Counted from the stretch's first letter, positions 3,621 to 18,846 are shown. The stretch: 64,000 bases of DNA from Methanobacteriota archaeon (GCA_018662825.1 JABJFI010000039.1:13643-77642), one strand, 5' to 3'. A program made the numbers and translations. Notes: a model not told the origin generated them from the letters alone.

Positions 3621-5501
3621 CTAAATCTTTCTTCGCAGACGTTCCATTGCAGCATCTGCCTCGGCAAGATGGTTGAGACAATCCTCGATACGACCACCTG
3701 CCAACGCTTCACCTGAAAGTGCAATTGCTTGCTCACAACCGCGTCGGTTTTCATCTTCAATTGAGATTCCATTAGCATCACATTGATTGCGAAGAACTTG
3801 CCATTCTTCTAAGACAAAATCATACAGTTCCAGTGCTTCATCACTTGCTTGGCCTTCATTATCAAGGTCGGTTGTCATTGCGTCAAGCAATACATTTGCT
3901 TGGGTCCACTGTTTGAGATCTGCAGCATCTTCTAAAGCCGTAAGTCGCTGTTCCCATTCGCTCTTATCATCTCGGTCTTTATACTGTGCAACCAATTTTT
4001 TCTTTTGCTTGAGGGCTCGTCGAACATTATCCATTGCAGCACGCTCTGCTTCAATAGAACGAACAACTCCGTCTGCTAATCCTATGGCTTGACTTGGATT
4101 TCCATCTTGAATGGCTTGTTCTGCCCGCTCTAGCCTCTGAACCATTTCTGATGTATCAAGGCCGTCGGTTTGTTCTAATTGTCGCTGTGCTTCTTTAGCG
4201 GCTTCCAAGGCACGACCTTGCGCATCTTCATCAGCCAATAATTGTGGTGGAATTACTATTGCAAATTCATAGGCTTGACGTGGCGCTTCACTGGCTAGTT
4301 TCTTTTTGGCATCTGCCAAGAGTTCTTTCAAATGTTGGACACTTTCGGCAGTATTATCGGAAAGTAATCGACTTGCTTCAGCGATGGCTTGTTCTGCTAT
4401 TGCCCACCATTCAATGATATCCTGAGCCAATTTTTTTGATTGCCGGAACAGCATTTCTCCTTCTCTTAAAGAGCCTAGCTTTACTTCTCGAACGCCCATG
4501 TCAAAGGATTTACGAGGTCGTTTTGCCGTCGGGGCAATCGATTCGGCTTTTTCGATTGCTTGTATCGCATCGGCTTGAATAATTTCTACATCGCCACTTA
4601 GAGAAAGTGTACGTTCGATATTTTCCTCGGCCTCGGCAAGAAGTTTCATGCCGTATTCTGGGTCAATATGGCCTTCTTCTTTAGCAGTCATCACTAAACT
4701 CGAGGCTTGGTCAACAGCAGCGCCTTGTGCTTTTAGTTCTAATAATTGATGTTCTAATTCATCTAAACGCTTAGCAAAGATTTTTCGCTCAACCCTTTGA
4801 TTGTCACCGACAAACCAAATGTAGGCGGTTGCTATACAACCCAACCCCAATGATGCCAGTGATACTAACCATTCATAGGTCATCGTTTCTGGAATTTGCC
4901 CAACGAAAAGAGAAAATGCTGCAATGACGCCTAAGCCAGTCATTATTGCTCGCCATCGCATTACATCAAGACCGCCCTGTAAAACAGTGCTAGATGCTTG
5001 AAAGCATGCATAGGCTACCAAAGCGATGAGGCCTGAACCAAGAGTCGACGCCGATTCCTCAAGGTTTAGGTGCCTTGAAGCAATAATCAACAGAACAGGC
5101 CATGCAATGCTAGCGAATGAACCAACCCTAGTCCTTGCCTTAGCATCATCAACGATTGAGTCCTGCAAAACCAAGCCATAAGCAATGATGAGAAGAGGGT
5201 ATCCTAAACCTTCGAGTAACCCTGAATTGCCTTTAAAGGCTGATTGAAGACTTGGCCACATCAGCCATATCGCACCAGCAAGAATGAGCAATGCGGACCC
5301 GCTCGTGAGGCGGTCAAGTCGCTTTTGTCTCGATTGACGGGCGGCAGTGATTGCTGCCTCGATATCCGCCCATGCATCGAGAGCCATAATGCATGTCGGG
5401 GCCATCTCGGTCATAACCACTCCGCTATTTCGTTTGTATCCCCCCTTCATCGAAACAGTATTTGAAACGATGGAATCAATCATTTTGATGGTAATGTTCA
5501 T
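3621..5501 (-). CDS. Membrane-anchored helical-repeat/coiled-coil protein; function unknown
   Basis: 626-aa ORF with about 6 TM helices in the first ~230 aa, then about 390 aa of Ala/Glu/Gln-rich helical repeats. The start is uncertain; an alternative Met at 5414 would leave a more normal divergent spacer to pyrB. Confidence 0.55.
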   Translation of the reverse strand: MNITIKMIDSIVSNTVSMKGGYKRNSGVVMTEMAPTCIMALDAWADIEAAITAARQSRQKRLDRLTSGSALLILAGAIWLMWPSLQSAFKGNSGLLEGLGYPLLIIAYGLVLQDSIVDDAKARTRVGSFASIAWPVLLIIASRHLNLEESASTLGSGLIALVAYACFQASSTVLQGGLDVMRWRAIMTGLGVIAAFSLFVGQIPETMTYEWLVSLASLGLGCIATAYIWFVGDNQRVERKIFAKRLDELEHQLLELKAQGAAVDQASSLVMTAKEEGHIDPEYGMKLLAEAEENIERTLSLSGDVEIIQADAIQAIEKAESIAPTAKRPRKSFDMGVREVKLGSLREGEMLFRQSKKLAQDIIEWWAIAEQAIAEASRLLSDNTAESVQHLKELLADAKKKLASEAPRQAYEFAIVIPPQLLADEDAQGRALEAAKEAQRQLEQTDGLDTSEMVQRLERAEQAIQDGNPSQAIGLADGVVRSIEAERAAMDNVRRALKQKKKLVAQYKDRDDKSEWEQRLTALEDAADLKQWTQANVLLDAMTTDLDNEGQASDEALELYDFVLEEWQVLRNQCDANGISIEDENRRGCEQAIALSGEALAGGRIEDCLNHLAEADAAMERLRRKI

Positions 5502-8219: not shown

Positions 8220-8237
8220 ATCCCCCTTTAGGGGGAT
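8220..8237. promoter_or_regulatory. Perfect palindrome ATCCCCC-TTTA-GGGGGAT upstream of the Roadblock operon
   Basis: Read directly. It lies about 53 nt upstream of the ATG at 8290. It could be an operator or a 5'-leader hairpin. Confidence 0.4.
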
Positions 8238-8289
8238 AAAAGCGCAAAACTACTTGAAGGCTACAGCATAGACGGGAGATTTGAGAACC

Positions 8290-8631
8290 ATGCTGCAACG
8301 AGTACTTGCCGGATTATGTCGCCTTGAAGGTGTTAATCAAGCAATGCTAATAGACGACACCGGCCAATTATTGGCAAGTGTTGGCGAAGAAGGAATCATG
8401 CCACCGTTTGAAGACGCTGTGGAAATGATACACGTAGCCCAGGAAACTGGACATTCTCTTGGCCTTGGCCAAGTCTATGAAGTGTGGATTGAAAGTAAGA
8501 ATAGGATGGTTATTGATGTGACTGCTCCAAATCGAATCGTAGTATTGAGTGGCGACGGAGGGCGATTGGCCCGATGGCGACATGCTCTTGATCGAGACCG
8601 CCGAATTCTTGCGACAACCCCCAGAATGTGA
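8290..8631 (+). CDS. Roadblock/LC7 (MglB-like) domain protein
   Basis: About 113 aa. The pattern LEGVNQAMLIDDTGQLLASVG ... LGLGQVYEVWIESKNRMVIDV ... IVVLSG matches the Roadblock/LC7 alpha-beta-alpha layout. The ORF track starts at a TTG at 8281; the ATG at 8290 is preferred. Confidence 0.6.
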   Translation: MLQRVLAGLCRLEGVNQAMLIDDTGQLLASVGEEGIMPPFEDAVEMIHVAQETGHSLGLGQVYEVWIESKNRMVIDVTAPNRIVVLSGDGGRLARWRHALDRDRRILATTPRM

Positions 8632-11600
8632 GTGATACCATGTTTAACCTACCAGAAGGAACCCCGATTGAAGAAGAAATCAATGTTGGAAGCGGTACTA
8701 TTCAGCCGTTTGACCACGGCGTTATTAGTACATGGATTGGGCGTAGGAAAACGCCTGCTGGACATCGATTAGTCCGTGCTGGACGAATTGTTGGTTGGCT
8801 TTCTGAATCCGGTAAAGGCAAATTACTGCTTGCCGGTAAAGAGGCTCGACTCCGTTTGGAAGAAATTGAATCCAAGGAAAACAGTCGATATATTGCAGGT
8901 GAATATTCTCTAGCAGGCCTTGGCAGCGTCGCTCAAGTCATACCGGAAGCGTTTGAGCACGCAGCAGACCGACAAGGATTAATCGCTCGTGGCGATGCAG
9001 TCGTTCGGCTTCTTGCCCGTGACTTATCTGCAGTACTACGAGCGTTGGTTGAACGAGATACAGTTCGTGGAGCGATTGCCATTGACCAGGGCATGCTCAT
9101 CGACAGCGTTGGGGAATTGCCGAACGATGCCGAAACGCTCGCACGAGAAATCCATTCCACCCTTGAAGCAATGAATATCAGTATTGTCGAAGATGACAGC
9201 ATTACTAACGGAAGTCATTGGACCATGCACCACGAGGGCGGTTCACTTCTTCTTGCTCAGGCAGGCGATGTTTCGCTTGGTGTTTGGACTGAAGCCAATA
9301 CAAATCATGCTCGATTAATCTCTGCAGCAGCAGCAGTTCTCGAAGGTGAACTCGGTGCAGTAGGTGCATCTGGAGGGCCATTGCCGGATGGATTCGTTCT
9401 TCGTGAAGGTCGAGGCGGTCCCGATGCCATCCTCTCTATGCTTACTGCTGGTGTGAAGGAAGAAGTCACTGGACATCTTCAATCCGGTCAATCATCTACT
9501 TCAGTCTCGGTACTGTTGGCTCGAGGTGTGCCGGTTGGGATATCTGCTCCTGAAGGTCAATCCTTGGAAGAAGCCATGCTTACATTCACCGATTCCTCTC
9601 GAATTCTCAAACTTCACCGTTTGCCAGTAGGCACTATTGTTTCACGTGATTCGGGAACGGTTGAAGAGTTCCGTCTCGATGATTTCTATGAATTGCTGGT
9701 CACCCTTCGAACTCGTTCAGAGAGTCGACGTGCAAACCTCAAGAGTAAACTCATCGATTTATTTGGATTTGAAATCGGAATGGAACAATTGAGGAAGAAT
9801 CGCTCCAGTGCAACCTTCTCTGAAACCGTTGAAGTGGTAAGTGGTGGATTGCCTGGTGAGGCCGCTCAAACCTTGGCCGTTGATTCGGGGTTGCGTCGAA
9901 GATTAGAATCTGCTGAGCATAAAATCAATGATTTGGAAAAGGAAAAGGCTGCTCTTGCAAGCCGACTAGAAGAAGCACAATCTGGGAAGAAAGCCGCACA
10001 AATTCTTGCACGTGAAGCATCTGAATCTCGACAAGAGTTCTTGACCAAGGTCGAATCATCCAACTCTTCGCTCGATTCATTGCAACTTGACTTGGCTGAA
10101 TCCCGTGCTGCTTCTGAACAAGCAGAAAACCGAGCTGAACGATTAGTAAAACGTGTCAATGAACTCGAACATCAAGTAAGTGTTCGTGCTGCTGAACTTG
10201 CTAAGGCACTTGGCGATGCCTCATCAAGTGAAACATTGCGTTCTGCAATTGAAGAATTGTCTTTGAAAGAAGCACAATTGAATGCTGATCTTCTCGCAGG
10301 AAGTGAACGCCTATCCACAATACGACAACAGTCCGAAGACGATGAGCGCCGACTACGTGTCCTTCAAGAGCAAGTTGAAGCAACACGCGAACGTCATACC
10401 CGTGTACAGGCAGAATCAATGCTTCTTGAAGAAAAAATCCACACTCAAACATCCGAATTAGAATCAATTGATGCTGAAGCAAAGGCTTCTCGTCGTCGTT
10501 CTGAAGAGGACCGCACCAGACTTAGTACTGATGAAGCTCGCCAAGCACAAGTTCAGGCCGAGATGCGTGAATTGATGACTGAACGCCGTCAAACCTTACG
10601 GGAACTCGGCGATTTAGGAGCACGTCGCGGCCATGCCGAAGCCGAACTCATCTCACTGGTTGAAAGGGCTGAAGCCCTCTCACAAGCTCACGAAGATGCA
10701 CTTTCAGACATTCAGGAAGCAGAACGCCTGCGGGCTCGTCTTGCTGAAGAACCATTGGCTCAGGCCTTACTCGATGATGCTACGACTTTCGATGGACTTG
10801 GTCCAGTTCTTGAACGCCTGGAAAATGCTCGAGCACTTGGCTACTCAGTAACTCTTCTAGACCGAGCAGTTGAACGTGGTTTACAAGTTATTCAATCGAC
10901 AGTCGACCATGTTGCTGCAACACCCCGTCACCTTCTTTCTAGTGAAGTTATGACTTTGCTCGAGCGCCAAGTACCTCAAACAGCAGGTGCAGTCCGGGGA
11001 CTTGCTCGTTGGTCTGTTCAACAAAGACTTGAACATCAACTCGGCGAAACAGTCGGTCATGTTGTGATTGACTTGGAACATTTACTCGAAGACTTCGACC
11101 GTTCAATAACCATGTTGCGCCGACTAAGGAATGTTTTGGAGCAACTAGTCCGACTAGGAGCGCCGCCTCAGGAAGTTGAAGCTTTACTCAATAATTGCAC
11201 TCGTCCTGAAGCATTGCCGAGTATCGCACAAGCCACACGGAAGTTGATTCAAGTTGCACTTGATGACATTTATCTTGAAGCCGACCAAAGAGATGCTGGT
11301 GAAGCAATTGCCCTCGAAGAAACTGCACGTGTTTTGGAAGAATTAATCACTCAACTCGATGCATCAGGACTTGCGGATGGTGTCCCACGTGGAATGCTTT
11401 GGGAGTTTCAACGCGATGGCTTGTTGCCCTATGAACGCAACACTATCCCTGATGCACAACGAACGCCGGTTGAAGAAGAAATGTTAATCGACATGGGTTC
11501 TTCACTTGCCGGAAATGTTCCTGTTTCATTGGATGCTGTTGAAAAGCAAGCAACAACTGATGATGCTGGTTGGGAAAACATGCCAGTTCCAGTCGATGAA

Positions 11601-11813
11601 ATCGATGAAAACGAGGCATTGATTACTCCAGAGGCAGTTGTTGCTACTCCGTCCAATGCATCGCTTAATCAAAGCGATGAGCGTGCAGAACTAGAAGCGG
11701 AATTAGCGCGTTTAGACGCTTCATGGAATCATCGCCAAGAACCCGCGGCTGAACAAGCAGTTGACCCTGCATTAGCCGCACTTGAGGCACGATTATCCGG
11801 TCTTGATTTCTAA
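8628..11813 (+). CDS. Giant (about 1060 aa) Roadblock-domain plus long coiled-coil protein; function unknown
   Basis: The start overlaps the upstream stop (ATGTGA/GTG); an alternative ATG lies at 8640. Residues ~125-235 resemble Roadblock/LC7 (VRGAIAIDQGMLIDSVGELPND...LLLAQAGDVSLGVW). Residues ~250-340 may be PATAN/DUF4388-like. An uninterrupted heptad-rich coiled coil of about 290 aa spans about nt 9900-10770. It ends in a helical C-terminal domain and an acidic tail. Confidence 0.6.
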   Translation: MSDTMFNLPEGTPIEEEINVGSGTIQPFDHGVISTWIGRRKTPAGHRLVRAGRIVGWLSESGKGKLLLAGKEARLRLEEIESKENSRYIAGEYSLAGLGSVAQVIPEAFEHAADRQGLIARGDAVVRLLARDLSAVLRALVERDTVRGAIAIDQGMLIDSVGELPNDAETLAREIHSTLEAMNISIVEDDSITNGSHWTMHHEGGSLLLAQAGDVSLGVWTEANTNHARLISAAAAVLEGELGAVGASGGPLPDGFVLREGRGGPDAILSMLTAGVKEEVTGHLQSGQSSTSVSVLLARGVPVGISAPEGQSLEEAMLTFTDSSRILKLHRLPVGTIVSRDSGTVEEFRLDDFYELLVTLRTRSESRRANLKSKLIDLFGFEIGMEQLRKNRSSATFSETVEVVSGGLPGEAAQTLAVDSGLRRRLESAEHKINDLEKEKAALASRLEEAQSGKKAAQILAREASESRQEFLTKVESSNSSLDSLQLDLAESRAASEQAENRAERLVKRVNELEHQVSVRAAELAKALGDASSSETLRSAIEELSLKEAQLNADLLAGSERLSTIRQQSEDDERRLRVLQEQVEATRERHTRVQAESMLLEEKIHTQTSELESIDAEAKASRRRSEEDRTRLSTDEARQAQVQAEMRELMTERRQTLRELGDLGARRGHAEAELISLVERAEALSQAHEDALSDIQEAERLRARLAEEPLAQALLDDATTFDGLGPVLERLENARALGYSVTLLDRAVERGLQVIQSTVDHVAATPRHLLSSEVMTLLERQVPQTAGAVRGLARWSVQQRLEHQLGETVGHVVIDLEHLLEDFDRSITMLRRLRNVLEQLVRLGAPPQEVEALLNNCTRPEALPSIAQATRKLIQVALDDIYLEADQRDAGEAIALEETARVLEELITQLDASGLADGVPRGMLWEFQRDGLLPYERNTIPDAQRTPVEEEMLIDMGSSLAGNVPVSLDAVEKQATTDDAGWENMPVPVDEIDENEALITPEAVVATPSNASLNQSDERAELEAELARLDASWNHRQEPAAEQAVDPALAALEARLSGLDF

Positions 11814-11824
11814 GGTGTGATACG

Positions 11825-12067
11825 ATGTCATCTGAAACAACCACCCTTTTGCATCGCGAAGAGTTGCAAGGAAGGCGATATCCATTGTATATCGAACGTC
11901 TCCTTCTAGTATTGGTCTTGATTGGAATCTATGTTCTTCACCCGAAGGTTGTCTCATTGATTGATGGGACATTAGGTATGCTTGTAGCATGGTGTGGGTT
12001 GCCGTTATTTTTACTTCTATGCGCAGAAATGATTGGGCGCCTTGTCCAATCAATGCACAAGGATTGA
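11825..12067 (+). CDS. Small two-TM membrane protein
   Basis: 80-aa ORF starting 12 nt after the giant gene. It has two clear hydrophobic helices (LLLVLVLIGIYVL; MLVAWCGLPLFLLLCAEMI). Confidence 0.45.
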   Translation: MSSETTTLLHREELQGRRYPLYIERLLLVLVLIGIYVLHPKVVSLIDGTLGMLVAWCGLPLFLLLCAEMIGRLVQSMHKD

Positions 12068-12071
12068 ATCA

Positions 12072-13286
12072 TCAAATATCTACGATTTCTTTCGACTGAG
12101 AACTTTCATCTTGTGTGCGCCGCGCATAGATGAATCCCCATATACGCTCCCATGGCACAAAGAATCTGAGGAGTGCCATGATACTCAAGAACATCGCAGC
12201 AGAAATGACCAAGCCATATGTCAGTGAGAGTTCAATAGATTCTGAAATCTGTCCAGCCCACTGACTACCCGTTGAATCTTTGACAAGATCTAAAAGAACG
12301 CTGTGGAAACCAAGAGCGACCATTGTCGCAATTCCAGTCAAGCCAAGGAAACCAAAAGTGTGCCTGAGATGGGTGTTGAGAACATTATCCATTTGTCGAA
12401 CATATTCTGGGTCACGCTTACATGACTCAGGTAGGCGGTATGCATATTCCAAATACCGTATTACACCAAACGCTGATTCTTGGAAAACCATGATGAGAAC
12501 AGCAATCATGATGAGGGCGAATTGTTCCTTTGTCACCAACATCAATCCAAATATGCCAATGGTGGGTTCACTAAATTGTGCACCGATAGCACTCACCGAA
12601 TTGCCATAATCTCCAAGTTGGCCGTTGATTAGAGGGAATGCAAGTATTGCATGGATACCAAGGAACAGGAGAGTAAATCCAATCGCCCAAGCAATTGAGC
12701 GACGAGAAAGTCCCCAAATCCCCCGCACACCCATAATAACCGGTAAGAGGTAAAGGAAGAGAATCATCAAAGACAAAATCATCAATAATGGCCATTCCAA
12801 AGTACTCAATTCGCTGGTGTTTGGTAATCTTAAGTCAAAACTAAACAACATTCCTGTGAGCCATGAAAGTAAGAGTTGGCCGACTAGAACGACGATGAGT
12901 GTGATGATGAAACCCAATTTCACTCGTTGCTGAATGACCGGTGTTTGGAAGGCAAGGAAAGCCATACCTCCACCAAACGCTAGTCCGAGAATCAATGGCA
13001 CAAAGAAACGTGTTAACCCCGTTCTTCCTTCCCCTGTAATCCAATCGCCAATCGGTAATTGGTCCCCAATGAGAATCTCGATGGTGTCAAAAAGCATGGT
13101 ATGGTCGATTGAGCCGACGACATAGGTCGAAACGACTTCTAGATACATGCCTATCAAAGCGATAGTAGCAATCACTTGGAGAGTGATGATTTGCCACTGC
13201 TTTCTCAGCATTTTCAAATGTAATGTACGTGGGCGGATTTCACCACTAATGGTGACGTCTCCTTGGAGTCCTACATCATCTGCCAT
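12072..13286 (-). CDS. Polytopic membrane protein, last gene of the DUF58 operon
   Basis: 404 aa with about 9-10 hydrophobic helices. Its start lies 2 nt after the stop of the DUF58 gene. Confidence 0.55.
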   Translation of the reverse strand: MADDVGLQGDVTISGEIRPRTLHLKMLRKQWQIITLQVIATIALIGMYLEVVSTYVVGSIDHTMLFDTIEILIGDQLPIGDWITGEGRTGLTRFFVPLILGLAFGGGMAFLAFQTPVIQQRVKLGFIITLIVVLVGQLLLSWLTGMLFSFDLRLPNTSELSTLEWPLLMILSLMILFLYLLPVIMGVRGIWGLSRRSIAWAIGFTLLFLGIHAILAFPLINGQLGDYGNSVSAIGAQFSEPTIGIFGLMLVTKEQFALIMIAVLIMVFQESAFGVIRYLEYAYRLPESCKRDPEYVRQMDNVLNTHLRHTFGFLGLTGIATMVALGFHSVLLDLVKDSTGSQWAGQISESIELSLTYGLVISAAMFLSIMALLRFFVPWERIWGFIYARRTQDESSQSKEIVDI

Positions 13287-13287
13287 C

Positions 13288-14541
13288 TTAGTACCCCCTC
13301 ACTTGCATCAATGCCTGAGACAAATCCATGTCCGGCATCCAATCGATGACCATGGCTCCCGAGCCAGCTAAAGTTGTCAAACGGTTTTGACGTTCAAGTT
13401 TGAGAACTTCATAGGACATACGAGGAATACGACTCACCAAGCGTTCAAAGTCAATACTTGAAGGCGAGAGGACGGTTACTTCATGGCCACGCCCAACAAG
13501 ATCCCGAACAGCAGCAGGTACTGTCCCATCACCTTCACACGAAGAAATAATGAAAACAGGACTTCCTCGACTGAAACGGCCACTCAATGAATTGGTCACT
13601 GCTTGAAGTGGCATAGTACCTTTAGGAGAGACGCCAGCAAGTGCACTTAGGATCTTAAAATATTGTTTATCACCGGTATCAGGTGGGAGATAGGAAAGGT
13701 TGTCATCAAAGATGGCTAAGGCAACAGAATCACGTCGTTTGAGGAAGAATGCTGCGAGGCTTGCCGCAGATACAGTACCCATTTCGAGTGGATTTTTCAG
13801 AACAGTTCCGATTCTAGCAATATCTCGGCTATCCAAGAGAATATACAGGTCAGTTACCGCATCACGACACTTTTCATTGACCATCAATTCACCCGTTCGA
13901 GCAAAAGCTTTCCAGTTAATGTTCTTGAAAGGGTCACCAGGGACATATTCACGAAGTGAATAAAATTCGGAACCTTGTCCAGGGGTTCTTAGAGTAGTAG
14001 CCCCAGTATACATTTTCGGTGTTCTAGAGCGAAGGAATGCTTCTTCTACTTCTTTGATTTGAGGGAATATGACGATGTCACTGTGATGATCAACAAACAT
14101 TTCATCCACACCAAGATTGAATGTGTTTTGAGAACGAAGCGATACCGGTCCAATCGAATAGTGGCCTCTTAACGGGCAACGTAGAACATATCGAATCCGA
14201 GCACTTTCTCCAGGGCGCAGATTCAAACGCATTTGATTAAGGCCACTTCGAAGTTTCATTTCATGTGGGATGTTATCGTAAACTTCCAACAATTGCGTGT
14301 TTCGGTTTGAACGATTCGTAACCAATAATTCGACATATAAATCATCGCCTTTGTATAGATTATCAGCCGAGAGAGTTCGTTGAACTTCTACATCACCATG
14401 TCCGGATATCCAAGAATTCACCACAATAAATGCAATGAATGAAATTCCAAGAATCATCATTTGAAGATTAGCAATCATCATGCCGATAAGAATCAGCGCA
14501 ATGCCGCCAGTGAAAGTGAATGATGCCTTACGCGTCCACAT
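13288..14541 (-). CDS. DUF58-family protein (vWA-like, normally a MoxR partner)
   Basis: Has an N-terminal pair of TM helices and the signature LREYVPGDPFKNINWKAFARTGELMVNE, typical of DUF58. The C-terminal region is vWA-like. Confidence 0.75.
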   Translation of the reverse strand: MWTRKASFTFTGGIALILIGMMIANLQMMILGISFIAFIVVNSWISGHGDVEVQRTLSADNLYKGDDLYVELLVTNRSNRNTQLLEVYDNIPHEMKLRSGLNQMRLNLRPGESARIRYVLRCPLRGHYSIGPVSLRSQNTFNLGVDEMFVDHHSDIVIFPQIKEVEEAFLRSRTPKMYTGATTLRTPGQGSEFYSLREYVPGDPFKNINWKAFARTGELMVNEKCRDAVTDLYILLDSRDIARIGTVLKNPLEMGTVSAASLAAFFLKRRDSVALAIFDDNLSYLPPDTGDKQYFKILSALAGVSPKGTMPLQAVTNSLSGRFSRGSPVFIISSCEGDGTVPAAVRDLVGRGHEVTVLSPSSIDFERLVSRIPRMSYEVLKLERQNRLTTLAGSGAMVIDWMPDMDLSQALMQVRGY

Positions 14542-14550
14542 AATATCACC

Positions 14551-16185
14551 TCAAGTGCGCCCCCACGCTTTGATTCGTTTGACAACAGCAACAGTCTGTT
14601 CAAGTGAATATTTTGTTGGTTCAATTGCAAATTTTGCCAACACAGGGTCATTGATGAGCGTTACAAGTTCCCGAGCTGGCATCGCATGGAACTCTTCACG
14701 ACTCAAACCATTTTGGTTACGAACCTTAGAAAGGAACACTTGGCGAATTTTGTCTGTTTTTGCATAGTAAGTGTATCTGTTTGCATCTCCAAATCCATAG
14801 TAGATGATACTGAACACGTGACGCCAAGGCTCAGGATCTCTTTTCTTGATAAGAACCGCTTCAAAGGCGATAAAGAGGAGAAGGAATAACAACAGCATTG
14901 CCAATCCTTCACCGGTGAAATAGACCAAGAGGAAGTAAACAGTATTGTAAGAATCTGCAACTAAGGCATTTTGTGGATGCCGTGATTCATCAAAAATGAC
15001 CATTGCGTTTTCTGCAGGTTGCCCTTCTTCTCCAATATTGGTCGACATCAATGCTTCAGCAATAAAATCCATAGCCCATTTCCGATTATCATTTTCAGGA
15101 ATACACTTTTCATTTGAGGTGACACATTCGTTGGAGCCATACAATGGATTATTTGGGTCATTGAAACCTTCATAGTCATAAATAGCATTAATCAATGCTG
15201 AACCATCGGCCATAAACACAATTCGTCCACCATCATTAGGGTCGCATGATTTCCGAGCGCATGCTTCAATGCTCAAATTGAATTGACCCCACAAATCGGG
15301 TGTTTCAGATGTTATCTCATTGCCCACCCAAATCTCACCATCACCATTTACATCGACGGTTGCTTCGTTACTTGTTACAGCACGAATAGAAACTTCTGAG
15401 AGGGCACCGTTAACGCCAGGGATAAGTTCCAATGCAGTGATGTTATTGAGCAATAATTGATAGGTCGCATTGTATTGAATTTCACCATTCTTCCAATGTT
15501 GAGTGCACAAGCCAGCATCTTCGAGCGGCATAATTTCGCCGTCTAACAAACTACAAGGATGTGCCCCTTCTCCATTCAAACCACTCCACCTTTGGTGGAC
15601 TGAGACGGTTTCAGGGTCAATGCTGCTTCCATTCATGCCACATGGGGTTGCTTGAATACACATCCAAATATAGTTGTAATCGAGTTCTTCGACATAGGTT
15701 GTGTCATAGAGTTGGTAGCCAGTATATCGGACTCCATAGGCTTGAGCAATACTTCCAGCAAAGCCATAATCATCAAGGACCAAGGCAGTTCCACCAGCAT
15801 CAACAAATTCTACAATCGCATCAATTTCTGAGGGAGAGTAACCATCTTCAGCGGCGATTGTGATGAAGCCATCGCTGTCAAACTGGGGCAATGAAAGCGT
15901 GTCACGCTCAACTCCAGCAAGAATATAGGTCGTATTTCGTGGATCTTCAATATCAGCCAGTAAGAGGGGGCTACTCACCAACGAGCTGGTTTGAATGCCC
16001 ATGTCTTTGATGTCTTGTCGGAATGCTGACATATCATTCCAGTCGTCATCATAGGCAGAGAGTTGGTTTGTATTGGAAAGGTTAACAAAATTGAGTAAAA
16101 TACTCATCAACAAAAGAACCATTACAAGCCAGAATGCGGCTTGAAGACCGATTCTCCGGTAATTGAGATTTATGTTGTCGAGCAT
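14551..16185 (-). CDS. Membrane-anchored extracellular protein, DUF4350-like
   Basis: Has an N-terminal TM and a large Cys-containing ectodomain with the segment GGTALVLDDYGFAGS. A second TM (LAMLLLFLLLFIAFEAVLI) is followed by a cytoplasmic tail. The family assignment is tentative. Confidence 0.45.
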   Translation of the reverse strand: MLDNINLNYRRIGLQAAFWLVMVLLLMSILLNFVNLSNTNQLSAYDDDWNDMSAFRQDIKDMGIQTSSLVSSPLLLADIEDPRNTTYILAGVERDTLSLPQFDSDGFITIAAEDGYSPSEIDAIVEFVDAGGTALVLDDYGFAGSIAQAYGVRYTGYQLYDTTYVEELDYNYIWMCIQATPCGMNGSSIDPETVSVHQRWSGLNGEGAHPCSLLDGEIMPLEDAGLCTQHWKNGEIQYNATYQLLLNNITALELIPGVNGALSEVSIRAVTSNEATVDVNGDGEIWVGNEITSETPDLWGQFNLSIEACARKSCDPNDGGRIVFMADGSALINAIYDYEGFNDPNNPLYGSNECVTSNEKCIPENDNRKWAMDFIAEALMSTNIGEEGQPAENAMVIFDESRHPQNALVADSYNTVYFLLVYFTGEGLAMLLLFLLLFIAFEAVLIKKRDPEPWRHVFSIIYYGFGDANRYTYYAKTDKIRQVFLSKVRNQNGLSREEFHAMPARELVTLINDPVLAKFAIEPTKYSLEQTVAVVKRIKAWGRT

Positions 16186-16309
16186 AAGTTCACCTTCTAG
16201 AGCACTGTTCCGACATAGCCACGTGATACATTGGGTTTAGAAGGTTGTTATTGCGTGGGAGGTAAATGCTCATCGATGGAGGAAATATTTAGGGCACAAA
16301 TATACCTTT

Positions 16310-16549
16310 TTATCGCTTTAAATGAACTTTTGAGGCAATTCGTGCAACTTCATCAACAGGGATTTCCATCAACCCGTCAGCCATCTCCCAAGGTAGTACA
16401 GTTGGGTCGAGGTTTTCTTCGATTTTTACTCTGATTCCTGAAATTGAACCAGATTGTTTGTCAAAGATAATATCTCGTAGTATGCCAAGGAGTTGACTGT
16501 GAGAGTCGATGACTTCACGACCAACAATTTCACGAGCAAAGACAGCCAT
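16310..16549 (-). CDS. PRC-barrel domain protein
   Basis: 79 aa. The segment REIVGREVIDSHSQLLGILRDIIFDKQSGSISGIRV is typical of small archaeal PRC-barrel proteins. Confidence 0.55.
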   Translation of the reverse strand: MAVFAREIVGREVIDSHSQLLGILRDIIFDKQSGSISGIRVKIEENLDPTVLPWEMADGLMEIPVDEVARIASKVHLKR

Positions 16550-16620
16550 TCACTTCATCCCTCAGTTACATACCTACCACATCGATGCAGCACATCAATG
16601 CGTCGATTCAAGGGGCGTCC

Positions 16621-18846
16621 TCACATCGTTTCCATTCCGAATCCGGTGTCGCGGGTTCGCTTGATATTGGAGAGTCCAGAGGTCAGCAAAGTTTCCATCT
16701 TTTGATAGTAAGCAAGCATTTCTGGATTCACGGTTGGGCGGACTCTCTTAATCGCTTCTTCGAAATGGGTCTTAGTGACCTTTTTCTTATTTGCGCGCAT
16801 ACAGATGAGTGCCGCTTCACGACAAACCGCTTCAATGTCTGCTCCAGTGAATCCGTCAAGTCCACCAATGATATCTTTGAGAGAGAATTTCGACAACGGC
16901 ATACCTTGGCTATGAATATTGAAGATGACTTCCCGTGCTGATGCATCTGGAGGAGGGACATGTAGTACACGCTCAAATCGTCCGCTACGAAGAAGTGCGG
17001 GGTCAATCATTTCTGGTCGATTAGTTGCTGCCACAATAATAACACCATCCAGAGATTCAACACCATCCATGCTCGCTAGCAACTGGTTGACAACTCGATT
17101 GCCAACATCGCTACCCTCGGTTCCTGAAGATGAACGCATGCTTGCGATTGATTCAAACTCATCTAAGAAGATAATTGCTGGAGCGGATTGTTTCGCTTTC
17201 TTGAAAATTTCACGAATACCCCGTTCGGATTCTCCAACCCATTTAGAAATCATTTCAGGGCCTTTGATACTGATAAAATTCGCTTGTGCTTCGTTGGCAA
17301 TTGCCTTGGCAAGTAGAGTTTTCCCAGTCCCAGGTGCGCCGAATAGAACAATTCCTCTCGGTGGTTTGATTCCAAAGTGTTCAAAGAGCTCTGGTTTGGT
17401 GAGTGGCCATTCAACGGATTCTTTGAGCCTATCTTTGACTTCTTCTAAGCCGCCGACTTCATCCCATGTTACTTTTGGAATTTCGACATAAATTTCTCTA
17501 AGTGCTGAAGGTTCAATGTCCTTAATAGCCTCGCGGAAATCATCCATTCTAACTTCCATCTTTTCGAGAACTTCAGGAGGTATTGTTTCCTCTTCCAAAT
17601 CGATTTCCGGCAGATAACGTCGTAGAGCCTTCATTGCGGATTCTCGAACTAGTGCTGCCAAATCTGCTCCGACAAACCCATAGGTATTGTCGAGAACCCA
17701 ATTGATTTCAAAATCATCGGAAATTGGCATTTGGCGAGTATGAACATCCATGATTTCACTGCGACCATCACGGTCTGGTACTCCGATTTCTATTTCCCGG
17801 TCAAAACGTCCAGGCCGGCGTAACGCAGGGTCCAAAGCATCTCGGCGATTGGTGGCACCAATGACGACAACATTGTCTCGGCCTTGCATACCATCCATGA
17901 GTGTTAACATCTGAGCAACAACTCGTCGTTCTACCTCCCCACTTACATCTTCTCGCTTAGGGCAAATGGAATCAATTTCATCAATGAAGATAATCGCTGG
18001 AGCATTTTCAGCGGCTTCATCAAAAATTTCTCGAAGTTGCTTTTCCGATTCACCGTAGTACTTGGAGATAATTTCGGGGCCGTTAATACTCTTGAAGTGA
18101 GCATTCACTTCTGTTGCAACAGCTTTGGCAATCATCGTCTTACCAGTGCCTGGGGGGCCATGAAGAAGAACTCCCTTAGGCGGGTCAATACCAAGACGAC
18201 GGAATAATTCAGGATGTTTAAGTGGTAGTTCAATCATTTCACGCACTTTTTGTAATTGCTGCCCGATTCCACCAACGTCTTCGTAGGTAATGCCTTCTGA
18301 TTGTCCAACATCGACATCGTCCACTGCTTCGTCTTTGATGACAATATCAGTGTCGTTGGTGACCTTGACAATGCCCTTTGGAGTTGTTTGAATAACTGCA
18401 AATGGTAGGGCTTCAGCAAACAAAGTCATTCCAGGGATGAAGATTCTATCACCTTGGACGACCGGTCGCTTGGAAAGACCTCTTCGAGCAAAACCTTCGA
18501 TACCAGGTCCGAACTTGACTTTTTGTTTATTTGCCATTACGGGAGAAAGAATAAGTTTGGTACATTCTTTGGCTTCGACTTTGCTAACAGTGACGCGGTC
18601 GCCAAGACTGACTCCAGCATTTTTACGAATAATACCATCAACGCGAATGATTTCCATTTTAGCATCTTCAGGTCTACTCCGCCAATAAATTGCAGCAGTT
18701 GAACGCTTTTCACCCTTTATTTCGACGATATCACCGGGTTTTAACCCAAGATCATTTTCACCAGAAATACGAGCCCTTCCATGACCTACATCCGATGGAA
18801 TTGCTTTAGATACACGTAACGACATTGTTTTCTCATCTTTCGCCAT
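16621..18846 (-). CDS. cdc48: Cdc48/VCP/p97-type AAA+ ATPase
   Basis: Has a double-psi-barrel N-domain and two AAA modules. Each module carries Walker [17 protein letters not shown], Walker [17 protein letters not shown], and second-region-of-homology arginines. Confidence 0.95.

Follow-up and report, generated by a model that had tools for sequence, protein, structure and literature searches.

A conserved Poseidoniales operon encoding two Roadblock proteins and a two-TM protein most likely builds a membrane-tethered scaffold

Introduction

Roadblock proteins act as dimeric platforms, for example in LAMTOR and MglB/MglC (PMC9481161), and those of Asgard archaea have been studied in connection with Rag/Arf-like GTPases (PMC10933270). 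What, then, could be built by an archaeal operon that encodes two Roadblock proteins, one of them fused to a long coiled coil, and a small membrane protein, with no GTPase gene nearby? Here, we address this question for three genes, g1, g2 and g3, in a 64-kb stretch of DNA, referred to as the window.

Results

The three ORFs lie co-directionally on the + strand. The first, g1 (8290..8631), encodes a 113-aa single-domain Roadblock/LC7 protein, as judged from the ORF, its homologues and PF03259. The second, g2 (8640..11813), encodes a multidomain protein of 1057 aa, and g3 (11825..12067) an 80-aa two-TM hairpin protein, as indicated by the ORF, hydropathy and conservation. The start of g1 was placed at ATG 8290 rather than TTG 8281 because its homologues are 113 aa long and begin with MLQRVLA. 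Likewise, g2 starts at ATG 8640 and not at GTG 8628, since all g2 homologues begin with an invariant MFxLPxG motif. With these starts, g1 and g2 are separated by 8 nt instead of overlapping by 4 nt, which corrects the sequence-only reading of this locus, where the g1 stop overlapped the g2 start. Its description of three co-directional, tightly coupled genes holds: g2 and g3 are separated by 11 nt in the window and mostly by 8–11 nt across related loci, and the g1 stop precedes the g2 ATG by 2–11 nt in 75 of 75 loci. Throughout the order Poseidoniales, g1-g2-g3 form a closely packed, conserved operon.

The g2 family is confined to this order, with 279 matches in species-representative genomes. 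g1 and g3 are each kept in 79 of 85 Poseidoniaceae loci, and the trio is also found in Thalassarchaeaceae (locus L122) and in other lineages where g2 retains 35–40% identity. It thus occurs in both Poseidoniales families, down to 35% identity, and g1 orthologues occupy the same position in the divergent lineages. On one divergent contig (L005), g2 has neither g1 nor g3 adjoining it. The Poseidoniales are also known as Marine Group II archaea.

The wider region, comprising pyrBI, TtuA, g1-g3, TM404, DUF58, DUF4350, PRC and CDC48, is collinear across the order; a surrounding block of ~15 kb keeps its gene order in nearly all loci, and the locus itself holds a fixed chromosomal position throughout Poseidoniales. 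The trio is syntenic across the order, but in a region this collinear synteny alone overstates functional linkage. The upstream pyrBI block is inverted in some genomes (L002, L036, L037 and L040), in which g1-g3 stay co-directional.

On sequence grounds, g1 is a Roadblock/LC7 protein, as had been claimed for a protein of ~113 aa. With PF03259, the window copy reaches 21.7 bits, below the cutoff of 23, and the match is confined to residues 3–30. Among 20 members of the g1 family, 19 match PF03259 at E ≤ 0.01 (best E 7.7e-6), and several homologues carry a precomputed PF03259 assignment. The best PDB sequence match is the Roadblock protein 7yh1, and Roadblock or LAMTOR2 proteins account for 14 of the 16 weak matches. 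The C-terminal segment of g1 is conserved and basic (GGRLARWRHALDRDRR).

The g2 protein has a net charge of about –67 and contains one Cys only. Its family comprises 549 close matches, and 71 representatives, about 12 of them full length, were found among 1.84 billion proteins. No Pfam, NCBIfam or PADLOC family could be assigned to g2, and searches for catalytic or NTPase motifs were negative. Its domain order is D1, a Roadblock domain, a small α/β domain, a coiled coil of ~300 aa, an orphan helical bundle, an acidic linker and a terminal peptide.

D1 (aa 1–110; 8640..8969, +) is a β-rich N-terminal domain in the AlphaFold2 (AF2) model (block pLDDT 82–92), with strands at 26–33, 41–46, 49–56 and 62–65, a helix at 66–79, a strand at 82–88 and a helix at 91–100. 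Sequence searches gave neither a Pfam nor a PDB match for D1. Compared with PATAN, it reaches an hhalign score of 15.7, which lies within the shuffle null and is indistinguishable from the negative control.

D2 (aa 126–235; 9015..9344, +) adopts a true Roadblock fold as modelled, in agreement with the internal Roadblock module proposed earlier. In the N-terminal AF2 model (pLDDT 78.8), its topology is α-β-β-α-β-β-β-α. The top 50 Foldseek matches in the PDB are all Roadblock, LAMTOR or MglB structures (prob 1.0, E from 4e-6), with target-normalised TM values of 0.58–0.82 and an rmsd of mostly 2.1–3.4 Å. PF03259 matches D2 in 7 of 13 family members (best E 1.7e-5), but not in the copy from the window.

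D3 (aa 252–327; 9393..9620, +) is a small α/β domain with the element order β-α-β-β-β-α-β in the AF2 model, followed by helices (346–390) that lead into the coiled coil. It had been read as a possible PATAN/DUF4388 module, and this assignment stands only in part. None of 13 D3 sequences matches PF14332 (DUF4388), even at E ≤ 10; a consensus used as positive control scores 92 bits. Aligned by hhalign to 17 verified DUF4388 sequences, D3 scores 23.5 (prob 20%, E 1e-3) in the expected register; column-shuffled nulls average 10.8 ± 2.4 (z 5.3), with 1 of 100 shuffles reaching the same score, and a Roadblock control scores 14.7, within the null. D3 is thus only moderately PATAN-like, and the PATAN call is weak. 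Like the PatA-type PATAN (DUF4388) regulators, D3 has the β-α-β-β-β-α-β order, and its alignment to them is in register across the TG..(strand)..G.iv.A..eeA core. However, it differs from them in lacking a Pfam DUF4388 match, in its low hhalign probability, and in having neither a REC domain nor an α-clip insertion.

The coiled coil (aa ~411–712; 9870..10775, +) was called from composition and heptads, and its flanking segments are modelled as helices. It spans 302 aa; A, E, L and R together account for 57% of these residues, with 0.3% Pro and 2.3% Gly, in line with the uninterrupted coiled coil of ~290 residues read from the sequence. A strong heptad signal is confined to residues 421–505. 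As a continuous helix, the coil would measure roughly 45 nm. Residues 423–712 match the NCBIfam models SMC_prok_B/A and Rad50 at E values of 6e-9 to 0.03. These matches reach 12–34 bits against cutoffs of 567–1087, cover only the coiled-coil part of the models, and represent coiled-coil noise. In the same way, the PADLOC models of anti-phage defence systems returned a single match among the three proteins and their neighbours, that of JetC to the coiled-coil region 419–696 of g2 (E 7e-4). g2 has no Walker A/P-loop, its AF2 models contain no ATPase head or hinge, and with a single Cys it therefore has no CxxC zinc hook.

The C-domain (aa 717–935; 10788..11444, +) is predicted to be an all-helical bundle (block pLDDT 74–93). 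It is the most conserved part of g2, with 59% identity in divergent representatives versus 34–35% for the N-terminal domains. Foldseek against the PDB gave a best E of 0.9 with TM values below 0.33. Pfam matches were scattered and at noise level; by sequence, the top match in the PDB was FliS (E 0.028). The C-domain is thus without a recognisable Pfam or PDB relative, as expected for a dedicated interaction module. An acidic disordered linker follows (aa 936–1010; 11445..11669, +), with pLDDT below 50, a net charge of –14 and a Pro content of 9%. Its identity within the family is only 18%. A helical C-terminal domain and an acidic tail had been anticipated from the sequence. The C-terminal tail proper (aa 1011–1057; 11670..11810, +) consists of two short conserved amphipathic helices, modelled at 1011–1032 and 1043–1053, which carry the motifs DERAxLEAELARLD and [AE]LxxLExxLx[DN][LI][DE]-hydrophobic-COOH. 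The tail motif is present in every full-length g2 representative and ends no other ORF of the window; it is probably a docking peptide. Its i, i+4, i+7 Leu pattern merely resembles MIM1. An ESCRT-III-like reading of the C-terminal part was rejected, as the Foldseek search of the PDB gave no ESCRT-III, PspA or Vipp1 match.

Hydropathy reveals two hydrophobic stretches in g3, which identify it, as first read, as a 2-TM hairpin. Juxtamembrane motifs are conserved, with YPxxxER before TM1 and AExIGR after TM2, and TM2 itself contains a conserved Cys. g3 evolves faster than g2 (18–46% identity) and is also present in Thalassarchaeaceae and other divergent loci. In locus L003, an FG-GAP gene has been inserted, and g3 is found downstream of it (hhalign prob 93.7%, E 2e-7).

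The locus had also been described as having no GTPase partner. Within the window, no ORF combines G1, G3 and G4 motifs (P-loop/G3/G4 regex), and none of 10 candidate ORFs gives a Ras-type Pfam match. No Ras-like GTPase was found in the flanks (±6–10 kb) of 85 related loci, and the precomputed Pfam annotations of the neighbours include no GTPase family. The claim is borne out within these regions, to which its scope is limited. Coupled MglA/MglB systems are defined by a gene for a cognate small Ras-like GTPase no more than about four genes away from the MglB homologue (PMC4316618), an arrangement found neither in the window nor at the 85 loci. Orphans are common, however: Wuichet and Sogaard-Andersen counted 328 among 749 MglB homologues, about 44%, and Thermoplasma and Aciduliprofundum combine unlinked Rup GTPases with orphan MglB homologues (PMC4316618). 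The absence of a GTPase gene is therefore neither unusual nor proof of independence, and at the level of the locus it is weak evidence.

Discussion

The operon is conserved yet uncharacterised, and most likely builds a long membrane-tethered scaffold. In our judgement, it is an even call whether g1, g2 and g3 are translated together as the parts of a single scaffold that is non-enzymatic, membrane-associated and specific to Poseidoniales. Their interaction we infer from the operon structure alone. In such an assembly, the coiled coil would pair two copies of g2 into a rod about 45 nm long. At one end, the g2 Roadblock domains and g1 would make up a multi-Roadblock platform comparable to MglB/MglC or LAMTOR. 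Through its conserved motifs on the cytoplasmic side, g3 would hold this assembly at the cytoplasmic membrane. The opposite end, with the nearly invariant C-domain and, on a flexible acidic leash, the terminal peptide, may recruit one or more partners. The platform may also sense or regulate an unlinked small GTPase, although the data do not require one. The sequence-only reading had suggested a 'membrane-tethered polarity/cytoskeletal scaffold', which is plausible given the architecture; its domain calls were largely right, with the exceptions that PATAN is weak and that the absence of a GTPase is local only.

The overall plan is reminiscent of the Myxococcus polarity module (MglB/MglC, RomR-RomX and RomY), in which several Roadblock proteins serve as a dimeric platform; MglB is among the Foldseek matches of D2. 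That module also associates with PATAN-type and coiled-coil partners, and RomR has an acidic disordered region and a conserved C-terminal segment. However, no cognate MglA gene lies near g1-g3, the Roadblock domain is fused within a 1057-aa coiled-coil protein, and the system is archaeal and order-specific. The Myxococcus proteins of the FrzS/AglZ type, polar scaffolds or adaptors with a small N-terminal regulatory α/β domain and a long coiled-coil rod, share the general plan of g2 (see PMC11580455). Their N-terminal domain is a (pseudo)receiver and not a Roadblock domain, and they are not known to have the orphan C-terminal bundle or a TM partner.

When comparing g1-g3 with Ragulator (LAMTOR1-5) and the C-terminal Roadblock domains of the Rags, the similarity lies in a membrane-anchored scaffold of stacked Roadblock dimers, an assembly that is only predicted for g1-g3. 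LAMTOR2 is among the best structural matches of D2 (1veu, 6ehr, 5y3a), whereas beyond the fold there is no sequence relation (15–21% identity). Ragulator is anchored by lipidated LAMTOR1 instead of a TM hairpin, has no coiled-coil rod, and includes the Rag GTPases as an integral part. The Asgard Roadblock proteins (7yh1, 9jue, 7f8m) provide the best structural matches of D2 and the best sequence match of g1. They are small archaeal Roadblock dimers and resemble the g1 and D2 modules in domain type, but they are single-domain proteins, none of them with a fused coiled coil or a TM-hairpin partner.

A possible, if doubtful, reading is an MglB-type regulator: the Roadblock platform of g1 and g2 would serve, as GAP/GEF or effector platform, a small Ras-like GTPase whose gene lies elsewhere in the genome. 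The PATAN-like domain would link this platform to a machine resembling type IV pili (archaellum or adhesion pili), so that the system sets the site where the machine is assembled. In line with this, D2 matches MglB (6hjm, 6h5b, 6izw) as well as LAMTOR, Roadblock and PATAN are associated in MglA/MglB neighbourhoods (PMC4316618), PATAN domains bind PilB1 and PilC (bioRxiv 10.1101/2021.06.11.447907), and Thermoplasmatota relatives have the unlinked Rup GTPases and orphan MglB homologues described above. The archaellum operon is present in all Poseidoniaceae genera; however, half of the Thalassarchaeaceae genera lack it although g1-g3 occur in that family, and the Poseidoniales have no identifiable chemotaxis genes (PMC6461757). 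The GTPase-free window and flanks and the weak PATAN assignment also speak against such a regulator. Rather unlikely is a GTPase-independent cytoskeletal element, in which g2 would polymerise through its coiled coil, like an intermediate filament, into a membrane-attached lattice or filament for cell shape, division or envelope organisation, with Roadblock modules that only dimerise or assemble. The 300-aa coiled coil between globular ends, the membrane hairpin encoded in the operon and the order-wide presence in both families, as expected for a housekeeping structural role, are consistent with it. The operon also always adjoins the envelope-type gene block TM404-DUF58-DUF4350, but this neighbourhood may merely reflect general collinearity, and both the elaborate domains of regulatory type at the N-terminus and the putative docking peptide at the C-terminus are more in keeping with an adaptor than with a bulk filament.

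The strong collinearity of Poseidoniales genomes could by itself have kept functionally unrelated neighbours together, as the ~15-kb block and the solitary g2 of L005 might suggest, and g3 in particular could be an unrelated small membrane protein merely on a shared transcript. For the trio as a whole we regard this as very unlikely: the short g1/g2 gaps are conserved in every locus, the genes stay co-directional where the pyrBI block inverts, g3 remains downstream despite the FG-GAP insertion, and g1 and g2 have a domain type in common. That g2 is an SMC/Rad50-like chromosome or DNA-repair protein, as its NCBIfam and JetC matches might indicate, is effectively refuted by their low scores and by the missing Walker A motif, ATPase head, hinge and zinc hook.

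Returning to the membrane-associated scaffold, we hypothesise, as an unlikely but specific version of it, a cytoskeletal tether that is restricted to this order and works without a GTPase. A g1-g2 Roadblock hetero-oligomer would nucleate the ~45-nm rod, g3 would anchor it in the membrane, and the structurally novel, nearly invariant C-terminal bundle and the peptide would capture a cellular machine. If true, the most abundant archaea of the surface ocean would possess a prokaryotic counterpart of Ragulator, a membrane scaffold whose origin was independent of small GTPases.

Organisation and conservation of the g1–g3 operon

The three plus-strand open reading frames (ORFs) proposed by the sequence-only reading were all recovered by ORF calling in the window. 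Comparison with homologues shifted two of the starts, those of g1 and g2. The g1 start lies at ATG 8290 (+), in keeping with homologues of 113 aa that begin MLQRVLA, while that of the giant protein g2 was placed at ATG 8640 (+), yielding 1057 aa, because every family member keeps the motif M-F-x-L-P-x-G. With these revised starts, g1 and g2 are separated by 8 nt and do not overlap at stop and start as described previously. The g2 stop is separated from the start of g3 (11825–12067, +) by 11 nt. In 75 of 75 related loci, 2–11 nt separate the g1 stop from the g2 ATG, and the g2-to-g3 gap mostly measures 8–11 nt. Upstream, a 326-nt intergenic region separates g1 from a divergent TtuA-like gene. 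It contains a perfect short stem-loop (CCCCC-TTTA-GGGGG, ~8224–8238) that precedes the g1 ATG by ~50 nt, and a GGGAG motif lies 12–17 nt upstream of the same codon.

The three genes form a conserved and translationally coupled unit, which stays together in related genomes. g2 is flanked by g1 and g3 in 79 of 85 loci, and most exceptions are cuts at contig ends; the short high-GC contig L005 is the sole locus with g2 that lacks g1 or g3. The trio is also found at divergent loci, including one from Thalassarchaeaceae (L122), as well as L123, L125 and L124; in L124 the contig ends within g1. In L003 and L004, which represent the most divergent lineage, a gene for a secreted FG-GAP protein sits between g2 and g3. 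Here the g3 orthologue is recognisable (hhalign probability 93.7%) and a g1-like ORF is present (53%). The inserted gene (L003 13182–14567 and the same region of L004) overlaps the g2 stop and encodes an FG-GAP/VCBS-repeat protein of 448–461 aa with a signal peptide and a C-terminal transmembrane (TM) anchor.

The window comes from a Poseidoniaceae (Marine Group II) archaeon, and the nearest relatives of its proteins all carry the label Candidatus Poseidoniaceae, Poseidoniales or Euryarchaeota. A profile built from the N-terminal region of g2 retrieved only 71 sequences from 1.84 billion representative proteins. About 12 of them are full length (1020–1089 aa), and generic Roadblock or PATAN proteins are not among them. 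The entire g2 architecture is retained down to 35% identity. A g2 relative is encoded in 279 stretches of the GTDB species-representative genomes, and the best 80 of these 279 all belong to Poseidoniales, except for one contig titled 'Verrucomicrobiales bacterium isolate ARS100' (L083, NZEQ01000033.1). This contig carries the Poseidoniales locus pyrBI-TtuA-g1-g2-g3-TM404-DUF58 in full, at 62% identity, and is almost certainly a misbinned archaeal contig. The source names of divergent g2 clusters include Candidatus Thalassarchaeaceae, and the family thus spans MGIIa and MGIIb.

Directly downstream of g3, a convergent block (12072–18846, –) encodes TM404, which belongs to no family, followed by DUF58, DUF4350, a PRC-barrel protein and CDC48. 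The block occupies the same place in Poseidoniaceae and Thalassarchaeaceae and is absent from L005. It contains no MoxR ATPase, the usual partner of DUF58. In the 2.06-Mb MG-II chromosome CM001443.1 (L028, 10001–14219), the g2 frame is interrupted, with the longest ORF piece ending at 12844 of 13173. The frame is also interrupted in L057, and both loci have a truncated TM404 gene. The interruptions are probably frameshift errors in the reference assembly, which, if so, would have hidden g2 from earlier annotation. On the other side of the operon, a 626-aa protein is encoded at 3621–5501 (–). Several TM segments occupy its N-terminal half, and its C-terminal half is long, helical and coiled-coil-like. 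Pfam, NCBIfam and PADLOC yielded no match to it, and its gene recurs close by in 58 of the 85 related loci, which makes it another lineage-specific membrane and coiled-coil protein.

Roadblock modules and a TM hairpin

Against the Roadblock/LC7 family PF03259, the g1 protein of the window scores 21.7 bits, compared with a gathering score of 23, and only its N-terminal 28 residues match. PF03259 is matched by 19 of 20 g1 family members (best E 7.7e-6), and the family profile retrieves almost exclusively Roadblock or LAMTOR2 entries from PDB sequences (top hit 7yh1, E 0.049). Judged by these profile matches, g1 is most probably a Roadblock module. The 80-residue g3 protein has two hydrophobic stretches and is a TM hairpin. 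Features conserved across the order are the motif YPxxxER ahead of TM1, a Cys within TM2 and the motif AExIGR following TM2.

The predicted model of the g2 N-terminal region (residues 1–412, mean pLDDT 78.8) comprises three domains. D1 (aa 1–110) is β-rich, D2 (aa 126–235) follows the canonical Roadblock order α-β-β-α-β-β-β-α, and D3 (aa 252–327) is a small β-α-β-β-β-α-β domain from which helices lead into the coil. A Foldseek search of the PDB with this model gave a top 50 consisting exclusively of Roadblock-fold structures (Asgard 9jue and 7yh1, LAMTOR2, MglB), with E values from 4e-6, a probability of 1.0 and target-normalised TM scores of 0.58–0.82. PF03259 is matched by 7 of 13 D2 sequences. 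The Roadblock-like module suspected inside the giant protein is thereby borne out, and the trio probably holds two Roadblock modules, g1 and D2. In an hhalign comparison of the two, only the α1-β1-β2 motif aligned (E 0.007).

Against a viral library, Foldseek with the N-terminal model found only weak matches of the longin or profilin type, none of them to D1 or D3. Among PDB sequences, profiles of the N-terminal region, D1 and D3 gave nothing significant, per-member Pfam scans of D1 and D3 at E ≤ 10 showed no recurring family, and hhalign detected no relationship of D3 with D1 or D2.

A possible PATAN (DUF4388, PF14332) module had also been proposed. Pfam DUF4388 matches no D1 or D3 sequence even at E ≤ 10. 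We therefore turn to profile comparison, based on a synthetic PATAN consensus, a proxy validated at 92 bits against PF14332. A homology search with this consensus gave no candidates, and a pattern scan with it retrieved 36 real PATAN genes from metagenomes; the reference alignment holds 17 sequences, each verified as DUF4388. D3 aligned to this reference with an hhalign score of 23.5 (probability 20%), which was reached by 1 of 100 shuffles (null 10.8 ± 2.4). D1 scored 15.7 (5 of 100 shuffles) and D2, the Roadblock negative control, 14.7 (6 of 100). Since the D3 alignment also has the structurally expected register, the assignment of D3 as PATAN-like is moderately supported. Weak matches of the archaeal family PF09987 (DUF2226) to the verified PATAN consensus (E 0.35) and to a single D1 sequence (E 0.088) hint at a possible distant kinship of DUF2226, PATAN and D1. 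Several of the metagenome proteins retrieved with the PATAN consensus (L107–L118, L121) contain only the N-terminal half of DUF4388, joined to another C-terminal segment (SLGEVLIQKGVID...). These fusions agree with the reported co-occurrence of PATAN and GspE_N-type domains.

A long coiled coil and an orphan helical bundle

The long coiled coil anticipated in g2 was located at residues ~411–712, a stretch with a heptad signal that is rich in A/E/L/R and practically free of Pro. This stretch gives rise to sub-threshold matches to SMC, Rad50 and JetC. The C-terminal model (residues 695–1057, pLDDT 75.8) agrees with the helical domain and acidic tail described earlier: an all-helical bundle of ~220 residues (C-domain, aa 717–935) is followed by a disordered acidic linker (aa 936–1010, net charge –14) and two short tail helices (aa 1011–1032 and 1043–1053).

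No relative of the C-domain was detected in Pfam or the PDB. Foldseek with the C-terminal model reached a best E of 0.9, the domain profile found nothing significant among PDB sequences (best FliS, E 0.028), and per-member Pfam scans at E ≤ 10 revealed no recurring family. The C-domain is the best conserved part of g2, with 59% identity among nine divergent representatives, compared with 34–35% for D1–D3 and 18% for the linker. All full-length representatives share the C-terminal ending [AE]LxxLExxLx[DN][LI][DE]-hydrophobic-COOH, and no other ORF in the window ends in this motif. g2 thus combines a long coiled coil with an orphan, highly constrained helical bundle and a disordered acidic leash that has a conserved peptide at its end.

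Absence of a linked GTPase

No ORF with the G1, G3 and G4 motifs of Ras-like GTPases was found in the window, where ten candidates of 190–260 aa are other proteins (kinases, metallo-β-lactamase, TPMT, BioY etc.), or in the 85 related loci. This confirms the proposed lack of a GTPase partner locally, and has no bearing on the rest of the genome. Orphans account for 328 of 749 MglB homologues in the survey of Wuichet and Sogaard-Andersen, none of them characterised as of 2014 (PMC4316618). Its tables list orphan MglB homologues together with unlinked Rup GTPases in Aciduliprofundum and Thermoplasma (PMC4316618).

A putative membrane scaffold and its alternatives

We propose a scaffold model, which as a whole has about an even chance of being correct. 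g2 would pair as a coiled-coil dimer ~45 nm long, and its Roadblock domains could combine with g1 into a multi-Roadblock platform comparable to that of MglB/MglC or LAMTOR. g3 would anchor the assembly at the membrane, and the C-domain and terminal peptide may recruit partners.

In the main alternative, the system would be a genuine regulator of the MglB type, controlling an unlinked GTPase and positioning a type-IV-pilus-like machine. A link between MglB and PATAN is known (PMC4316618), and PATAN domains bind PilB1 and PilC (bioRxiv 10.1101/2021.06.11.447907). However, the PATAN call is weak, and the operon is present in Thalassarchaeaceae, whereas the archaellum operon is missing from half their genera (PMC6461757); we consider this alternative rather unlikely. 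A structural filament seems more doubtful still. That the three genes are mere collinear neighbours is highly improbable. Their synteny is weaker evidence than it appears, because a whole ~15-kb region is collinear across the order (pyrBI, TtuA, g1–g3, then the convergent TM404, DUF58, DUF4350, PRC and CDC48); stronger arguments for linkage are the conserved 2–11-nt gaps and the persistence of the trio despite a pyrBI inversion in L002, L036, L037 and L040. Finally, identity of g2 with SMC/Rad50 has a negligible probability and was ruled out, because g2 has no ATPase head, no P-loop and a single Cys. Full-length g2 gave only coiled-coil noise against Pfam, NCBIfam and PADLOC.

Three further candidates were dropped: ESCRT-III gave no fold match; a defence system had no PADLOC match and the locus is a fixed part of the chromosomal core; and the strongly acidic, helical g2, which lacks both a signal peptide and TM segments, does not fit an S-layer or secreted protein.

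Comparison with known systems

The nearest known systems are Myxococcus MglB/MglC/RomR, Ragulator, the Asgard Roadblock proteins, coiled-coil adaptors of the FrzS/AglZ type and PATAN regulators of the PatA type. Whereas the logic of a Roadblock platform is common to all of these and to g1–g3, the latter differs in that a Roadblock domain is fused within a giant coiled-coil protein, which also carries an orphan C-terminal bundle, that a TM hairpin serves as partner, and that no GTPase is linked. Every naming source calls g2 a 'hypothetical protein', except for an automatic COG label from JGI. In the literature searched, Poseidoniales and Roadblock proteins are connected by passing mentions at most, and no paper discusses g2. 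We regard g1–g3 as a solid, conserved and uncharacterised system whose component types are familiar and whose function we infer.

Poseidoniales (Marine Group II) rank with the most abundant archaea of the surface ocean. The order is uncultured, and next to nothing is known of its cell biology. The operon, present in both of its families, joins modules whose other known settings are polarity control in bacteria and lysosomal signalling in eukaryotes. If it encodes a membrane scaffold, it would offer a first handle on spatial organisation in Poseidoniales cells and a test case for the role of the many 'orphan' prokaryotic Roadblock proteins (PMC4316618).
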